Part shown: positions 2,432 through 7,956 of the stretch, piece after piece
Layout: the number at the start of each line of letters is the position of its first letter
Numbering within the stretch: the first letter of the stretch is position 1
NCBI GenBank assembly: GCA_016193315.1
Contig: JACPSJ010000001.1
Coordinates: 406,723-470,722, forward strand
DNA: 64,000 bases
Origin: Candidatus Kerfeldbacteria bacterium
Lineage (GTDB): Bacteria; Patescibacteriota; Patescibacteriia; SBBC01; CAIJZX01
Direction: 5' to 3'
Program-made: the position numbers and the translations under genes
Notes under the pieces: generated by a model
The model's database searches: none
Seen by the model: the letters and a program-made list of their open reading frames with translations, nothing else
Told to the model about the DNA's origin: nothing

Positions 2432-2575
2432 AACGTGATTGTAGCAAACATCAACGCTGAAGGCATGTTTCGGCGACTGAGGGCATTGACGAAGACGTTT
2501 TCAATTCGTATACTGTTGGCGCTGCGAGGTGCTGGCATTGCCATGCGGAAGTTCTACACTATCCCGCCGCCCAGC

Positions 2576-2590
2576 TCCGGGATCGTCTAA
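2576..2590 (+). pseudogene. Displaced 5' fragment of tRNA-Gln (positions 1-15, tccgggatcgtctaa), identical to the intact copy
   Basis: A 15/15 match to the 5' end of the tRNA at 2860, with the same upstream 'gc'. It diverges immediately after the D-loop 'ctaa'. Confidence 0.6.
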
Positions 2591-2594
2591 CCTG

Positions 2595-2609
2595 CCCCGC
2601 CAAATTTCT
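2595..2609 (+). repeat. Left terminal inverted repeat ccccgccaaatttct
   Basis: Perfect reverse complement of 2945-2959. Confidence 0.7.
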
Positions 2610-2614
2610 GCAAC

Positions 2615-2962
2615 ATGAGGTGCTGGGTCTATATTCTCAAAAATCGACAAGGTAGTTATTATATGGGAATCACTACTTTACTGACGGAGCAAAGGCTGAG
2701 TCGTCATAATCGAGGCCATGTCTTGTCCACAAAATTCAAAAGCCCCTGGCACCTTGTATTCACCGAAGAGCATAATAACCGTCGTTCAGCACGTATGCGA
2801 GAAAAACAAATCAAGGGTTGGCATGGTGGAGAAACTTTACAAAGATTCTTGCGCACCGCTCCGGGATCGTCTAATGGTAGGACGCCAGGCTCTGAACCTG
2901 GTAATCTTGGTTCGAATCCAGGTCCCGGAGCGGTGCGCAAGAAAAGAAATTTGGCGGGGTGA
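2615..2962 (+). CDS. GIY-YIG nuclease domain protein (YhbQ/UPF0213-like). The ORF reads through the tRNA and right repeat to TGA at 2960-2962; the real C-terminus may be shorter.
   Basis: The start reads MRCWVYILKNRQGSYYMGITTLL…RLSRHN…REKQIKGW, a GIY…YxG…R…E core resembling UPF0213 small GIY-YIG proteins. ATG start. Confidence 0.65.
   Translation: MRCWVYILKNRQGSYYMGITTLLTEQRLSRHNRGHVLSTKFKSPWHLVFTEEHNNRRSARMREKQIKGWHGGETLQRFLRTAPGSSNGRTPGSEPGNLGSNPGPGAVRKKRNLAG
2860..2930 (+). tRNA. tRNA-Gln (anticodon CUG), intact copy
   Basis: Hand-folded cloverleaf. Acceptor TCCGGGA/TCCCGGA has U1:A72 with G73; U8 is present; D-stem GTCT/GGAC; anticodon stem CCAGG/CCTGG with loop CTCTGAA; 4-nt variable loop; T-stem CTTGG/CCAGG with loop TTCGAAT. 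U1:A72 plus G73 are Gln identity elements in E. coli. Confidence 0.8.
2945..2959 (+). repeat. Right terminal inverted repeat agaaatttggcgggg
   Basis: Perfect reverse complement of 2595-2609. Confidence 0.7.
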
Positions 2963-2963
2963 A

Positions 2964-3016
2964 TAGGACGCCAGGCTCTGAACCTGGTAATCTTGGCCTG
3001 AATCCAAGTCCTGGAG
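2964..3016 (+). pseudogene. Displaced, decaying 3' fragment of tRNA-Gln (positions 20-73)
   Basis: 49/53 identical to the intact copy. The substitutions are T-loop TTCGAAT to CCTGAAT (loses T54/Ψ55), T-stem CCAGG to CCAAG, and acceptor C to T. Confidence 0.6.
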
Positions 3017-3316
3017 CTCAACGTTGGAATCTTATTATACTGAGGGCGAAGGTAGGCGGGTCCCTATCCCGTGTGCCCAATGGCTTGGGTGGTCTTCGTT
3101 CCGAGTAAAAATTTACCCGCGCACCAGACCGGCGGATCCGGTCGGTGCGGGGTTCCGCTCCGCACCGTATCTTGTGATGCCGCCAGCTCCTGCTGACGGA
3201 GCTTCACTATAATCAATATAGATGTGGGAGGTTTTTCTTTGCATGACAATAATACGCGAATAGACTTTTTTGCAAACCATGCTATTGTGAATTTAGGCGA
3301 ACAGGAATAACAACTC

Positions 3317-5614
3317 ATGAAACCCATGCTCGTGGAAACAAAACAAAAAATTAGCGTCCGGACTATCGCGCCAATAGGGATTATTACCCTTGGCTTTAGT
3401 ATGTTGGCCGCTGGTGGGTTTTTCTTTTGGAAGGGTATTCAACCGCCGGTATCGGTTCCCAAAACCCCGACCATGCAATCGTTGACTACCGAACTTCTTA
3501 GCCTGAATACTCAGTACCAGCAGGCGTCAGCATCTGGTAAGGTCAAAAAACTACGAACGCTCCGTTCGATTGCCGAACAGCGCAAAACACTCGCTGCTTC
3601 ACTTCTGCAGAAAGATCCAGGGACCTTCTTAAAAACGTCTCTGGCACAGTCTGATCGAGACTCTCTTCCATCGGAGATCCAACCGCTGGTTGAGCAGGCG
3701 GTGACTTTGCAAGGTGAGATTGAGGTTGAGCACTCGGATGATTTTCAACATGCCGTGGCATATTATTCCTACTCCGTAAAAACGAAAGATCCTCCAGCCT
3801 CTTTCAGGCTTCATTTTTCTGGGGCCGGTCCAACCATCCTGTCCGGCGCGACGGTCAAGGTGAGCGGTGTCCAGCTGGACAATGATTTTGCCGTTCCGGG
3901 CGTGACGACTTCCGATGAAGCAGTCTTATCAGATCCGACTATTGACCCGCTGCCGGGCCTGACCGTGGTAGCAGTGCCATCGAGTCCAGCTGTCTCCGGC
4001 GCCAAGAAGATCATGGTCGTTGTGTATGACGTCGCCGACGCGCCAATGATCACTGATCCGAATTGGTGGCGGGGTAAGATTTTTACGGACCCTGATTCCG
4101 TCAATGCGTACTACCAGGAAAACTCGTTTGGCAACCTCAGTGTGGCAGGGAAATTGAGTACCCAGGGAGATATCTACGGCCCCTATCGGGTTAGCGGCTC
4201 GGCCACTCATTGCAGTTCCGAAGGGCTGGATGAAGCCAAGCAGCGGGCGCTCCAAGATGGCGCCGTGTTTTCCGGATACGACTACTACATATACATCGGT
4301 TGGGCTTCGGCGATTTATTGTGGGAAAAACGGCATACAAATTGGAAACGAAGTTTACAGCTACAGTGGTCAAGACTTTTTCACGATTGAACACGAACTTG
4401 GTCACGCCTTTGGCACCGGTCACGCCGGCGGTAATCATGCCGGTCCAGGCGGCGGCTCAGCCGAATACGCTGATCCTTTTGACGTCATGGGTAATTCCGG
4501 TTTCATGCGGCACATGAGCACCGCTCGAAAGGCCCAACTTGGATGGTACCAGCCTGGCGACCTCCAGGAGATTACGACCAGTGGGACGCACACCGCGACT
4601 ATCTATCCGATTGAAGAACCATCAGCCTCACCCAAAGGAGTAAAAATCAGTGCCGGCAGCACACAATTCTACTATCTCGAATACCGTCATCCCTTTGGGC
4701 AGTATTTTGACAATTTTTCCACGACCGAACCGGTGGTCAACGGAGTTTCCATCCGACTGGCAAACGATACGAATTTGCTCAGCTCAGCCTGGACAACAAC
4801 GCTCATCGATGCGGTACCGGCAACGAGTAGTTTTAGTGATGCACCTTTTCAAGTGGGCCAAACTTTTACTGATGTAGCCAGAGGCGTGCAGGTGACCACC
4901 ACCAGAGTGACACCCGATCGCTCGAGCGCCGAAGTCAGCATTACCCTGACCTGCGCCAGATCCAATCCTTTGGTAACGGCCAGCCCCTCAACAAACTACG
5001 CCCGTCCCGGCGACACGGAACAGTATCGACTGACCATCACCAATAAGGACACCGTGGCCTGCGGGTCAAGCACCTTTGCGGTCGATCCGATCAATCTGCC
5101 AGTCGGCTGGACGCAAGTACCGGCTTCGACCACAGTAACTCTCCTGCCCCAGCAGTCGGCGGCAGTCGATATCACAGTCACCTCGACGCCAAACGCGACC
5201 GGCGTAGTGCCCATCTCGGGGCGCGCCACGAATCAAGCCGCCACCTCTTTTCAGGGTAGTACAACCATTGTGTATAAAATTGATTCGACTGCTCCATCCG
5301 TGACGATTACTAGCCCTACTGATGGTGCGGTGTTCAGCAAGTCCAGCACCGTCAGCATCACCGCCACGACATCCGATAACTATGTCATCGATAGTCGGGA
5401 AATCTTCATTGATGGCGCATCGCTCAAACAGTGCGGATCAACGGGTTCCTGTACCTACGATTGGAGCCTCAGTAACGTTAGCGCTGGCACGCACCGTATT
5501 CGGTACACGGCCACGGACGGCGCCGGAAATGTTGGGGAAAACTCTATAACAGTCACCGTCGTCACCAGTGGCGGAGGCGGAAGCGGTGGTGGTCTCAGGC
5601 GATTGCCGGAATAA
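3317..5614 (+). CDS. Secreted or membrane-anchored zinc metallopeptidase (HEXXHXXGXXH zincin motif) with C-terminal Ig-like/CARDB-like repeats and a Gly-rich tail
   Basis: 765 aa with an N-terminal TM helix. HELGHAFGTGH lies at about residue 350. It has repeated beta-sandwich-like segments (…TVTLLPQQSAAVDITV…) and a C-terminal SGGGGSGGG. About 48% GC, lower than the surroundings. Confidence 0.6.
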   Translation: MKPMLVETKQKISVRTIAPIGIITLGFSMLAAGGFFFWKGIQPPVSVPKTPTMQSLTTELLSLNTQYQQASASGKVKKLRTLRSIAEQRKTLAASLLQKDPGTFLKTSLAQSDRDSLPSEIQPLVEQAVTLQGEIEVEHSDDFQHAVAYYSYSVKTKDPPASFRLHFSGAGPTILSGATVKVSGVQLDNDFAVPGVTTSDEAVLSDPTIDPLPGLTVVAVPSSPAVSGAKKIMVVVYDVADAPMITDPNWWRGKIFTDPDSVNAYYQENSFGNLSVAGKLSTQGDIYGPYRVSGSATHCSSEGLDEAKQRALQDGAVFSGYDYYIYIGWASAIYCGKNGIQIGNEVYSYSGQDFFTIEHELGHAFGTGHAGGNHAGPGGGSAEYADPFDVMGNSGFMRHMSTARKAQLGWYQPGDLQEITTSGTHTATIYPIEEPSASPKGVKISAGSTQFYYLEYRHPFGQYFDNFSTTEPVVNGVSIRLANDTNLLSSAWTTTLIDAVPATSSFSDAPFQVGQTFTDVARGVQVTTTRVTPDRSSAEVSITLTCARSNPLVTASPSTNYARPGDTEQYRLTITNKDTVACGSSTFAVDPINLPVGWTQVPASTTVTLLPQQSAAVDITVTSTPNATGVVPISGRATNQAATSFQGSTTIVYKIDSTAPSVTITSPTDGAVFSKSSTVSITATTSDNYVIDSREIFIDGASLKQCGSTGSCTYDWSLSNVSAGTHRIRYTATDGAGNVGENSITVTVVTSGGGGSGGGLRRLPE

Positions 5615-5619
5615 ACCAG

Positions 5620-6117
5620 CGTTCGGGTCGGTTCTAGACCGGAGTAGTGAGCGGTAAGCTGGTAACCCATCAAGTCTCCATGTCGGGATCCCGCTGCGGC
5701 GGGAGAATCCGACCTCCGGAGCCAGAAGTGATCGCGCCCCTTCTCTGCCTTCGTTGCGAATGCTCCAAGTCTTCGGAGAGTTGACGAGGCAAACAATTTC
5801 CAGTAATCTAAGTCCGCGCCGTTGGCGCTTTTTACCCGCCTCCGCAGAAAGCCAAGGGCGTAAGCCCGTGAATGAATGCGGCGGGTATCCCGACGAAGGA
5901 GGGATCTCCCTAGGTTGCTTCGGCGGGTTTCGCCGAAGAACTAAGCCGAAACCACGGCTGCAAAGCCGTGGAGCTTCACCGTTATGCAACGTCGACCCGA
6001 CATCCGAAATATCGCCTCCCTCCCCCTTCGGCCTTGCCTCGGCGTCGAGGGCTCGGCATCGAGGCGAGCTCAGGGACGAAAGGTCTGGCAGGAGGGGCCA
6101 ACCCTACTGAATGTACC
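5620..6117 (+). ncRNA. Candidate structured RNA or long 5' leader upstream of typA (family unassigned)
   Basis: About 500 nt without a convincing ORF. It has multiple perfect hairpins capped by GNRA/UUCG-type loops: GGGC-GUAA-GCCC (5866-5877), CCACGGCU-GCAA-AGCCGUGG (5952-5971), CUUCGGCG-GGUUU-CGCCGAAG (5918-5938), GAC-GAAA-GUC (6075-6086), and the tandem ctcggcRtcgagg repeats (6040-6066). Confidence 0.3.
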
Positions 6118-7956
6118 ATGATCAATCGGCGTAAAGACATTCGCAATGTTGCTATCATTGCCCACGTTGACCACGGCAAAACGACCCTGGTTGATGCGAT
6201 GCTGAAACAAACCCAAGCCGCTCGAAATCTTGAACAGATGGGCGAGCGGATTTTGGATTCAATGGACCAAGAACGGGAGCGCGGCATCACGATCAAAGCC
6301 AAGAACGCCTCGATTGTGTATCAAGGCGTGAAAATCAATATTATTGATACTCCCGGGCACGCCGATTTCGGCGGGGAAGTGGAGCGTACGCTGCGCATGG
6401 CCGATGGGGTTTTGATTTTGGTGGATGCCAAGGAGGGGCCGATGCCCCAGACCAAGTTTGTGACGCGCAAAGCACTGGAACTCGGTTTCCCGACCGTCGT
6501 GGTCGTTAACAAAATTGACAAACCCGACTCCGACCCTGACGAAACAGTCAATAAAACTTTCGACCTGTTCGGGCAGTTGAATGCCACGCACGCTCAACTT
6601 GATTTTCCGGTGGTCTACACGAACGCGGTGGCTGGCACAGCCACGCTCGACCACACGCAGCCGGGGACGGATTTGAAACCCTTACTGCAATTGATTCTCG
6701 ACAAAATCCCTGGGCCGGAAGTTCGGAAGAGCGACCCACTGCAAATGCTCGTTCTGGCCTTGCGGTATGACAACTACCAGGGCAAAATGGGAATCGGAAA
6801 AATCTACGCCGGCACGATCGCGAAAGGACAAGCCGTTGCCCAGATCAAGCACGCTGGTCAGGCGGTGACCGGCAAAGTGACGGAGATCATGATCTACGAA
6901 GGCTTGAGGCAAGTCGCTGTTGAATCAGCCGAAGCCGGTGAGATTGTGGCCGTCGCCGGTCTCGAGAACATTGCCATTGGCGAGACCATTGCTGATGCGA
7001 ACAATCCTCAGCAATTGCCACCCGTCGAAGTTGACCAGCCGACCGTCCAGATGACATTCGGCGTCAACGCTTCTCCATTCGCCGGGCAAGAAGGCAAACG
7101 AGTGACCTCGCGACAAATTCGGGAACGCCTGGATCAGGAGTTGGAAACGAACGTGGCACTCCGGGTGTTACCATCCGAAAACGAGAATAGCTGGCTGGTG
7201 GCTGGTCGGGGTGAGTTGCATTTAGCCGTCCTGATCGAACAGATGCGGCGAGAAGGGTATGAGCTTCAGGTTTCGCAACCGCAAGTCATCCTTCACGAAC
7301 GGGACGGCCGAAAACTCGAACCATTCGAACTCGTTACCATTGACGTCCCGGCCGAATTTCAAGGCGCCATTATCGAGGAGTGCGGACGTCGGAAAGGGAA
7401 TCTGCTGACGATTGACGTGACGCCGAACGGCGAACTCCATATCGAGTATGACATGCCGACTCGCGGCGTGATCGGTTTGAAATCAGCCTTGATGACGAAG
7501 TGCCGCGGCCAAGCGGTCGTCCACCATCTCTTCAACAAATACGAACCGTATCAGCCGGATCTGGTCGACGCGAACCACCATGGTTCTTTAATTGCATACG
7601 AAGACGGAACCAGCACCAGCCACGCCCTCGATAACGCCCAGCAGCGCGGCGTTTTGTTCATCGGCCCGGGACTGAAGGTCTATGCCGGCATGATCGTCGG
7701 GCAGAGTGCGCGGGACGAAGACATGGAAATTAACGTGGCCAAGGAAAAAAAACTCAGCAATATGCGGTCGAAGGCCTCAGACGATGCCATCCTCCTGGCC
7801 CCGCCGAAACTGATGTCACTCGAACTCGCGCTCGAGTATATTGGGCCCGATGAGTTAGTGGAGGTGACCCCCAAATCGATTCGCCTGCGGAAAAGCATTC
7901 TTGACCGGAACCAGCGAAAGCGAGCCGAGAAGAGACTGACCGAGCCGGACACGTAA
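6118..7956 (+). CDS. typA: Translational GTPase TypA/BipA
   Basis: [31 protein letters not shown] is a BipA-type N-terminus with G1-G5 motifs, 612 aa. ATG at 6118 was chosen over the GTG at 5968, whose extension has no homology. Confidence 0.88.

Follow-up and report, generated by a model that had tools for sequence, protein, structure and literature searches.

What occupies the long spacer ahead of typA in a genome of Candidatus Kerfeldbacteria? In the window (the whole stretch of 64,000 nucleotides analysed here), the gene for the translational GTPase TypA/BipA (6118–7956, + strand; 612 aa; Pfam GTP_EFTU, EFG_C, and BipA_C) is separated from its upstream neighbor by 503 nt (5615–6117), since the stop of the upstream gene lies at 5614 and typA begins at ATG 6118, not 6119, as judged from the N termini of homologues. 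An earlier reading made from the DNA letters (hereafter, the sequence-only reading) had proposed that this spacer is a single structured noncoding RNA of about 500 nt and of unknown family, or a regulatory leader of typA. The noncoding spacer itself is real, as no 3-base codon periodicity was seen across it and its three largest open reading frames (ORFs) matched no Pfam family. The spacer is not a single large structured RNA, but a patchwork of a tRNA scar, the typA promoter, a hairpin-rich leader, and an upstream ORF (uORF). Its functional core would be the typA promoter with a 5′ leader of ~305 nt, as part of an overall explanation to which we give slightly more credence than doubt.

Results

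An upstream ORF copies the N terminus of TypA

The sequence-only reading had overlooked a separate frame that opens at ATG 5984 and encodes a copy of the TypA N terminus. Codons 1–11 of this 45-codon uORF (5984–6121, + strand) encode MQRRPDIRNIA (5984–6016); the consensus for the TypA N terminus in the clade is MxRRxDIRNIA, and the matches of a blastn search with 5984–6016 fell exactly on the typA starts of three related loci (L003, L010, and L020). The uORF ends on the start of typA itself, its TGA (6119–6121) overlapping the typA ATG (6118–6120) in a shared ATGA (6118–6121, + strand). Its interior (6017–6097, + strand) consists of a C-rich run (6017–6026), two palindromic near-repeats (6038–6050 and 6052–6064), and a G-rich run (6087–6097). 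The near-repeats, which can fold as one long hairpin or as two short ones, had been recognized before, with the slightly different coordinates 6040–6066, whereas the GAC/GUC hairpin also reported for the spacer proved to be GAC-GAAAG-GUC, with a stem of merely 3 bp. No gene in the window other than typA has an upstream copy of its own N terminus, and a search of a 5.8-billion-protein collection with the uORF peptide returned no candidate.

Two other signals near the start of typA were considered and rejected. A GTG-extended ORF at 5968, which the sequence-only reading had raised as the possible real start of typA, is ruled out because the homologous proteins start at MxRR. An AGGAGG at 6090 is probably irrelevant as a Shine-Dalgarno (SD) sequence, given that it lies 22 nt from the ATG and that SD use in the window is near background.

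The uORF recurs in related genomes and derives from a duplication of the typA 5′ end

The window TypA shows 100% identity to a protein of that name from Candidatus Kerfeldbacteria, a member of the Candidate Phyla Radiation (CPR)/Patescibacteria, and the same 9 kb of DNA occur with zero mismatches in an independent Logan assembly. Relatives were collected by TypA searches; genome and metagenome scans mostly gave Nitrospira and distant taxa, with 2–3 Kerfeldbacteria per scan. The comparison set comprised 16 Kerfeldbacteria typA loci including the window, with TypA identities of 75–82%, plus 142 loci from other phyla. A TypA-like uORF was present at seven of the 16 Kerfeldbacteria loci, namely the window, L082, L002, L165, L166, L086 (two in tandem), and L167 (degenerate). 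No similar uORF was detected at the 142 non-Kerfeldbacteria typA loci, where the best upstream score was 31 versus 37–69 in Kerfeldbacteria. Within the clade, the distribution of the uORF over a single-protein neighbor-joining tree of TypA was patchy.

The nearest relative of the window, L082 (82% TypA identity), has the uORF head MDRRTDIRNIA, the same ATCGCC|TCCC junction between head and insert, and the same ATGA. Its insert is 21 nt shorter than that of the window, so that the frame is kept. The two uORF heads are identical at 41 of 50 positions, compared with 74% identity for the typA coding sequence, and the rest of the insert cannot be aligned. At the place equivalent to window 6017–6097, L082 has a C-rich/G-rich hairpin of ~24 bp (z-score against shuffled sequences, −2.87). 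These two genomes, which we call type B, have an extra second typA codon, reading ATG ATC (MIN… at window 6118–6126 and MID… at L082 2425–2433); in L082, the extra ATC codon is the source of the ATGA overlap with the uORF stop.

In the type-A genomes (L002, L165, and L166), the uORF head MxRRxDIRNIA(IIA)H is followed by a hairpin and then by GGCTCTGACCACGGAAAAAC, an out-of-frame relic of (V)DHGKT, and the uORF stop falls just before or just after the real ATG. Because the type-A copies keep MxRRxDIRNIAIIAH, the hairpin, and then the out-of-frame DHGKT relic, their comparison with typA indicates that the uORF originated by duplication of approximately the first 22 typA codons, with a hairpin-forming insertion in the upstream copy. 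L086 (1037–1221) has two tandem copycat uORFs (MERRNDIRNIAITPH… and MERRHDIRNIAIIAH…), each stopping 1–4 nt before the next ATG, which implies that the 5′ duplication arose more than once. Two further loci show decayed forms. In L167 (2897–3004), the head is degenerate (MNPVRDPRAISH) and the TypA-like peptide is lost, with the ATGA retained; this head forms a perfect 14-bp helix with the sequence running into the typA AUG (AUCCCGUUAGAGAU/AUCUCUAACGGGAU). At L169, all that is left is a stub of four codons and a hairpin.

Ten nucleotides in the tail of the type-A insert, CAGGCTCTGA (L165 561, L166 2489, and L086 1188), recur unchanged in the anticodon arm of the neighboring tRNA-Gln(CTG) (window 2886 and 2972). 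This sharing, which we spotted post hoc, was reached by 0.1–0.7% of shuffles (p about 0.005) and could be due to chance or be a trace of recombination at the tRNA-Gln hotspot.

Selection on the uORF head and geometry of the stop–start contact

Among the seven uORF heads, the ratio of nonsynonymous to synonymous divergence (pN/pS) was 0.17 (pS 0.72), compared with 0.11 among the real N termini, with pS at ~0.7–0.9. This substitution pattern indicates that the uORF heads are under purifying selection. Between the uORF and the real copy of the same genome, pS was 0.55–0.93 and thus near saturation. The uORF heads of L002 and L165 each depart from the real N terminus at 7 of 15 codons, all synonymously, and the differences in L082 are also all synonymous; almost no amino-acid changes separate the uORF from TypA in L002, L165, L082, and L086. 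At the two variable positions, the uORF residue agreed with TypA from its own genome 9 times out of 14 (1.2 expected), a value reached by 52 of 20,000 permutations. As judged from these comparisons, the uORF head is held identical to TypA over its first 11–15 residues by selection. The arrangement has also persisted while synonymous sites became saturated; its loss would be easy, since the repeats can recombine to leave a clean gene.

Relative to the A of the next ATG, the stop codons of all eight uORFs begin no more than 7 nt earlier and no more than 5 nt later. The uORF frame is offset from that of typA by 0, 1, or 2, depending on the genome, and the stop–start contact is therefore the sole feature that these offsets leave in common; a single frameshift joining the uORF to typA is excluded by the same offsets. 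The type-A hairpin also appears to be maintained as RNA structure: 97% of its cells are paired, two pairs are changed on both sides, and 11 of 500 shuffles were as good, the compensatory changes being GG/CC, UA/UA, AAU/AUU, and UG/CA. The predicted unpaired probability of the typA start averaged 0.44 in seven uORF leaders versus 0.58 in eight single-start leaders (one-sided Mann-Whitney p 0.02), and predicted occlusion of the start was clear-cut in L167 alone, by its 14-bp helix.

A conserved promoter and 5′ hairpin precede typA

A sigma-70 promoter for typA is predicted at 5781–5809 (+ strand), with the −35 box TTGACG at 5781–5786, a 17-nt spacer, and the −10 box TAATCT at 5804–5809. The pattern TTGAC(A/G/T)-17-TAnnnT was found upstream of typA in 11 of the first 12 Kerfeldbacteria loci and, by eye, likewise in the remaining four; the related motif TTGACR-N17-TANNNT occurs seven times in the window versus 0.56 expected. 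A stem-loop followed by a U-run (GCGCC-GUU-GGCGC plus UUUUU; 5816–5833, + strand) starts ~7 nt past the −10 box. Its motif is unique in the window (0.03 expected), and a pattern scan flagged it as terminator-like (5 GC pairs, 3-nt loop, TTTTT). A GC stem-loop with a U-run 5–13 nt past the promoter was seen in 11 of the first 12 loci and, by eye, in the last four, the stem-loop being present in L003, L082, L085, L168, L169, and L172 and as variants in other loci, so that promoter and hairpin together are conserved upstream of typA in ~15 of the 16 loci. Because the pair recurs across the clade, the terminator-like hairpin is most simply read as the predicted conserved 5′ end of the typA mRNA. 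Stem-loops at the 5′ terminus can stabilize bacterial mRNAs, as exemplified by the ompA 5′ hairpin. The window element resembles ompA-type stem-loops and early intrinsic attenuators in placing a GC stem at or a few nucleotides from the predicted 5′ end, followed by a U-run, but differs from them in being conserved specifically upstream of typA within one CPR clade.

Everything before ~5780 is outside the leader. The proposal of a regulatory leader of typA thus holds for the 3′ ~300 nt of the spacer, which contain the clade-conserved promoter, the 5′ hairpin, and the uORF running into the typA start. From the −10 box, just past which the transcription start is predicted, 174 nt lead to the first ATG in the window (ATG 5984) versus 40–121 nt in relatives.

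A second hairpin lies past the 5′ stem-loop in single-start relatives (L003 3950–3985, L083 9902–9935, and L172 ~1409–1440), and a hairpin at ~965–985 in L086 is listed with them. The L003 and L083 versions (GACAAUCGC-GAA-GCGGUUGUC and GACCAUGGC-GAG-GCCAUGGUC, respectively) show compensatory differences, and GUCAUSCUGARC is conserved after this hairpin. The window has no second hairpin of this kind.

The structured part of the spacer is a genome-specific hairpin array

The spacer as a whole folds better than its shuffles (z −3.07 on the + strand and −2.47 on the − strand). This excess stems from 5834–5975, an array of hairpins in the predicted 5′ untranslated region (z −3.74 on the + and −3.58 on the − strand), and the near-equal values on the two strands are as expected for plain palindromes. 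In contrast, 5615–5760 (z +0.49) and 6010–6121 (z −0.44) fold no better than shuffles, so the description of the spacer as highly structured applies to the array and not to these parts. On the + strand, the array consists of H1 (5834–5886), which includes GGGC-GUAA-GCCC at 5856–5867 rather than at the 5866–5877 first assigned to it, a small hairpin (5900–5911), H3 (5913–5942, with an 8-bp core at 5918–5938), and H4 (5952–5971, an 8-bp stem with a GCAA loop). The two 8-bp stems had been placed exactly by the sequence-only reading.

No homologue of 5834–5975 was found in 168 loci (1.2 Mb) or in the 15 related typA leaders, and an nhmmer search of 5615–5983 against the 1.2 Mb of collected loci gave only a marginal match in the promoter region (E = 1). 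Comparison of the typA upstream regions found the promoter and 5′ hairpin conserved and the 5834–5975 block absent. No second copy of the spacer exists elsewhere in the 64-kb window. No Rfam family matched the spacer at gathering thresholds, and none that would reclassify it emerged otherwise: the whole window gave only tRNA-Gln (2860–2930), a search of 5400–6400 at E ≤ 10 with lax filters gave only two chance fragments of 14 and 10 bits, and the leaders of nine relatives gave zero matches. Thus, the proposal of one ~500-nt structured RNA of unknown family does not hold, because the first ~165 nt precede the promoter and are a scar of a tRNA-Gln/island and because 5834–5975 is absent from all relatives.

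The sequence-only reading had noted, and rightly dismissed, a resemblance to RNase P RNA. RNase P and other large ribozymes are rejected, as no covariance model matched at gathering or lax thresholds. The likeness is limited to the isolated short motifs GGUAA and AAGUCCG; unlike in RNase P RNA, AAGUCCG (at 5810–5816, not 5806–5812 as first given) directly follows the −10 box in the window and covers both the site at which transcription is predicted to start and the initial base of the 5′ hairpin. The spacers elsewhere in the window, which had been put at 0–150 bp, appear to be roughly of that size once small ORFs are counted.

The 5′ part of the spacer is a tRNA-Gln scar

Relatives carry dnaX, tRNA-Gln(CTG), and typA in that order, which this comparison indicates to be ancestral. 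The tRNA-Gln lies ~150–250 nt ahead of typA in L172 and L085, and other genes are inserted between the two in L083 and L084. In the window, dnaX (219–1772) and tRNA-Gln (2860–2931) are followed by an upstream neighbor of typA that encodes a 765-aa M11-like peptidase with a Big_7 domain. A decayed tRNA-Gln/att scar (5636–5746, + strand) lies upstream of the typA promoter and outside the leader. Within it, 5716–5746 (CCGGAGCCAGAAGTGATCGCGCCCCTTCTCT) matches the 3′ end and downstream flank of the L085 tRNA-Gln, which is directly upstream of typA, at 25 of 31 positions (local alignment, z 5.4). This match backs the earlier suggestion that gaatccgacctccggag at 5705–5721 is a relic of a tRNA-Gln 3′ end at the edge of an island, and it supports the view that the scar marks the far edge of an insertion that parted tRNA-Gln from typA. 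The segment 5636–5725 can adopt a tRNA-sized, cloverleaf-like fold with a four-way junction (z −1.9) and is possibly a pseudo-tRNA. ARAGORN, whose sole tRNA in the window was 2860–2931, and Rfam at E ≤ 10 did not call it as a tRNA, and its similarity to the window's own tRNA-Gln was not significant (z 0.5).

The proximal side of the inserted block has its own repeats. From its anticodon stem onward to its 3′ end, tRNA-Gln is repeated directly at 2966–3017, 34 nt past the intact tRNA (47 of 52 positions identical). In the independent Logan assembly, the first base of contig L001 is precisely window 2967, from which we conclude that the Logan assembly broke at the tRNA-Gln repeat. The GC content of 2550–4800 is 0.45–0.55 versus 0.55–0.63 in the flanks, and GC content at third codon positions is flat in the peptidase gene, which fits a foreign block between tRNA-Gln and typA. 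No integrase was found in the block from 2932 to ~5746, in which the M11-like peptidase/Big_7 gene is the single gene. The region therefore shares with tRNA-targeted genomic islands a tRNA-Gln with a direct copy, a lower-GC block with one cargo gene, and a degenerate tRNA 3′-end scar (5705–5746) adjoining the ancestral neighbor typA; unlike such islands, which have a distal direct repeat of the 3′ part of the tRNA and an integrase, it has a badly decayed distal repeat and no integrase or other mobility gene. It is at best the remnant of a tRNA-targeted island.

An ORF with a GIY-YIG domain (2615–2959; Pfam E 4.7e-15) extends into tRNA-Gln. Ahead of this ORF, at 2575–2590, 16 nt of the tRNA-Gln 5′ end (CTCCGGGATCGTCTAA; also at 2859–2874) are repeated without a mismatch, and it looks as if a GIY-YIG cassette was inserted at tRNA-Gln and duplicated its first 16 nt.

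Discussion

On balance, we lean toward the reading that the typA 5′ leader contains a uORF, born from the duplicated 5′ end of the gene, that couples typA translation to its own. Transcription would start ~7 nt past the −10 box (5804–5809), and the mRNA would then begin with the GC stem-loop and U-run of 5816–5833. Ribosomes would load at ATG 5984, past the genome-specific hairpin array, in a start region that homology identifies as a copy of typA's own translation-initiation region. They would translate the 45-codon uORF through GC-rich hairpins, melting the hairpins of the leader, terminate at UGA 6119–6121 in the AUGA, and re-initiate at the typA AUG. We infer this start of transcription, the translation of the uORF, and the re-initiation from the arrangement of the locus. 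TypA synthesis might thereby be coupled to the passage of ribosomes through a structured, proline-rich leader and, more speculatively, respond to translational capacity, proline-rich stretches (PPP in L082), or temperature. The 5′ ~165 nt would stand outside this mechanism, as a probable relic of the tRNA-Gln that was once ahead of typA and was displaced by the insert with the 765-aa peptidase gene.

Several observations weigh against this coupling. By itself, coupling gives no reason for conservation of the peptide. The uORF is dispensable, because 9 of the 16 Kerfeldbacteria loci have no uORF or a mere remnant (eight single-start loci and the L169 stub). The stop–start adjacency is partly forced, because the GC-rich inserts are poor in stops and the real start contains ATGA: the stop position was reproduced by 32–100% of shuffles for the window, L082, L002, and L167, and although the positions in L165, L166, and L086 are individually unlikely (1–4%), three of these four uORFs inherited a single ancestral stop. 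Accessibility of the typA start differs only slightly, in a comparison of just seven with eight leaders. SD-like tetramers occur at 6 of 47 gene starts (window genes of at least 150 aa) versus a background of 8%, and arguments from ribosome-binding sites are unusable because SD use is so near background. The window's own copy is the least convincing of the set, as the stability of its interior is shuffle-like (z −0.4 to −0.6) and its variable residues (Q, P) differ from those of its own TypA (N, K).

The conservation of the peptide might also be explained if the mimicry itself were the mechanism, although we consider this improbable. The nascent uORF peptide would be read at the ribosome by TypA, by a partner, or by the exit tunnel together with the downstream hairpin, and this would set the number of ribosomes going on to TypA. 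Such a reading would account for the within-genome covariation of the variable residues despite saturated synonymous divergence. It would amount to an autoregulatory decoy of the nascent chain, for which tubulin or control of the SecM/SecA type offers a loose parallel and which would be new among bacterial translational GTPases; we think it equally improbable in this form.

Some of the evidence weighed above would also follow if the uORF were a neutral scar, that is, if it were merely what is left, in the course of decay, of a duplication (tandem or foreign) of the typA 5′ end, with typA initiating independently at 6118 and the hairpins having no role. We regard this as unlikely, yet as deserving serious weight. 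In favor of a scar, the uORF is patchy on the TypA tree, is missing from half of the relatives, and shows decay in L167 and L169; the adjacency is largely composition-forced in four of eight cases, the interior of the window uORF is no stabler than shuffles, and a recent origin of each copy from the functional typA of another lineage would produce low pN/pS without selection on the uORF. A recent origin is difficult to reconcile with a within-genome pS of 0.55–0.93 that is accompanied by almost no amino-acid change in L002, L165, L082, and L086, and decay does not predict that variable residues covary within genomes, that the arrangement persists though repeat recombination makes its loss easy, that the type-A hairpin undergoes compensatory changes, or that a perfect 14-bp helix with the typA start arose in L167. 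Another proposal, rather unlikely in our judgment, is that the 5834–5956 block, and perhaps the hairpin inserts of the uORFs, are palindromic elements resembling miniature inverted-repeat transposable elements or repetitive extragenic palindromes, or recombination scars of the tRNA-Gln integration hotspot, and have no regulatory role. The block is a genome-specific palindromic insertion in an otherwise conserved leader, tRNA-Gln by typA is an insertion hotspot (the copy at 2966–3017, the scar at 5716–5746, and other cargo in L083 and L084), and the type-A insert shares CAGGCTCTGA with the tRNA-Gln anticodon arm, a similarity noticed only after the fact. Against this proposal, the 64-kb window contains no second copy of the blocks, neither terminal inverted repeats nor target duplications could be delimited, and no integrase is nearby. 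As it concerns origin, it could coexist with the coupling model.

That 5834–5975 is an independent structured small RNA or a riboswitch-like element of an undescribed family, sensing a ligand or temperature for typA or constituting a separate gene, seems very improbable to us. The array has the strongest fold signal of the spacer (z −3.7), with four clean hairpins with GNRA-type loops, and lies within the predicted 5′ untranslated region. It is nevertheless missing from all 15 related typA leaders and the 1.2 Mb of loci, has no Rfam match, gives an equally strong signal on the opposite strand, as plain palindromes do, and occurs in a single copy, so that neither conservation nor covariation is demonstrable. 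Recoding, in which ribosomes starting at 5984 would bypass the insert, frameshift over it, or have it spliced out and thus join the uORF N terminus to TypA, is hardly credible. It would explain why the peptides need to match within genomes, and a stable hairpin starts directly past the last shared codon, with the last shared codons belonging to the same family (His/His or Ala/Ala). However, every genome retains an ATG and a complete N terminus in the second copy itself, no stop or slow codon follows the putative take-off codon (the next codon is TCC in the window and CCC in type A), the distances are 92–137 nt with inconsistent frame offsets (0, 1, or 2 mod 3), and every uORF is open to the stop adjoining the real ATG. 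Bypassing in particular is unlikely because the shared head is not followed by a stop and because the downstream copy carries an ATG of its own. The typA loci resemble T4 gene 60 in having matched codons that flank a noncoding gap and a hairpin at the putative take-off site; in T4 gene 60, by comparison, the gap is 50 nt, a stop or hungry codon follows take-off, and a single product is made, features that the typA loci lack.

The coupling reading places the leader close to known systems. Recent bacterial examples include the uORFs behind the B12 riboswitches of M. tuberculosis, with uORF translational coupling (PMC11260477), and predicted upstream ribosome-binding sites in Sinorhizobium (PMC13285730). 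As in uORF and leader-peptide coupling, a short ORF in the 5′ leader has a stop that overlaps or touches the main start (AUGA), albeit one that is nearly composition-forced in four cases, its frame is conserved with coding-type substitutions, and a translating ribosome could open secondary structure near the main start. It differs from known coupling uORFs in that it copies the first 11–15 codons of the main gene, with a head that is selected and covaries with that gene, and in that no ligand- or amino-acid-sensing run of codons is evident. Our literature searches found no report of a typA/bipA leader or uORF, of Kerfeldbacteria leaders, or of a uORF copying the N terminus of its own gene. In this reading, the leader would work like known coupling uORFs, and the presumed 500-nt structured RNA is mostly an ordinary patchwork.

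If the coupling holds, it would provide clade-specific control of TypA/BipA, a ribosome-associated GTPase of stress and assembly, in CPR bacteria that have small genomes, largely lack SD-led initiation in the window, and have so far been genetically intractable. For annotation, 5′ duplicates of this kind can mislead the calling of start codons, and long "structured" spacers by tRNA genes may be mosaics of scar and leader rather than new RNA genes. Under the same proviso, the locus shows a route by which the tandem duplication of a gene's own initiation region would lead to a regulatory uORF.

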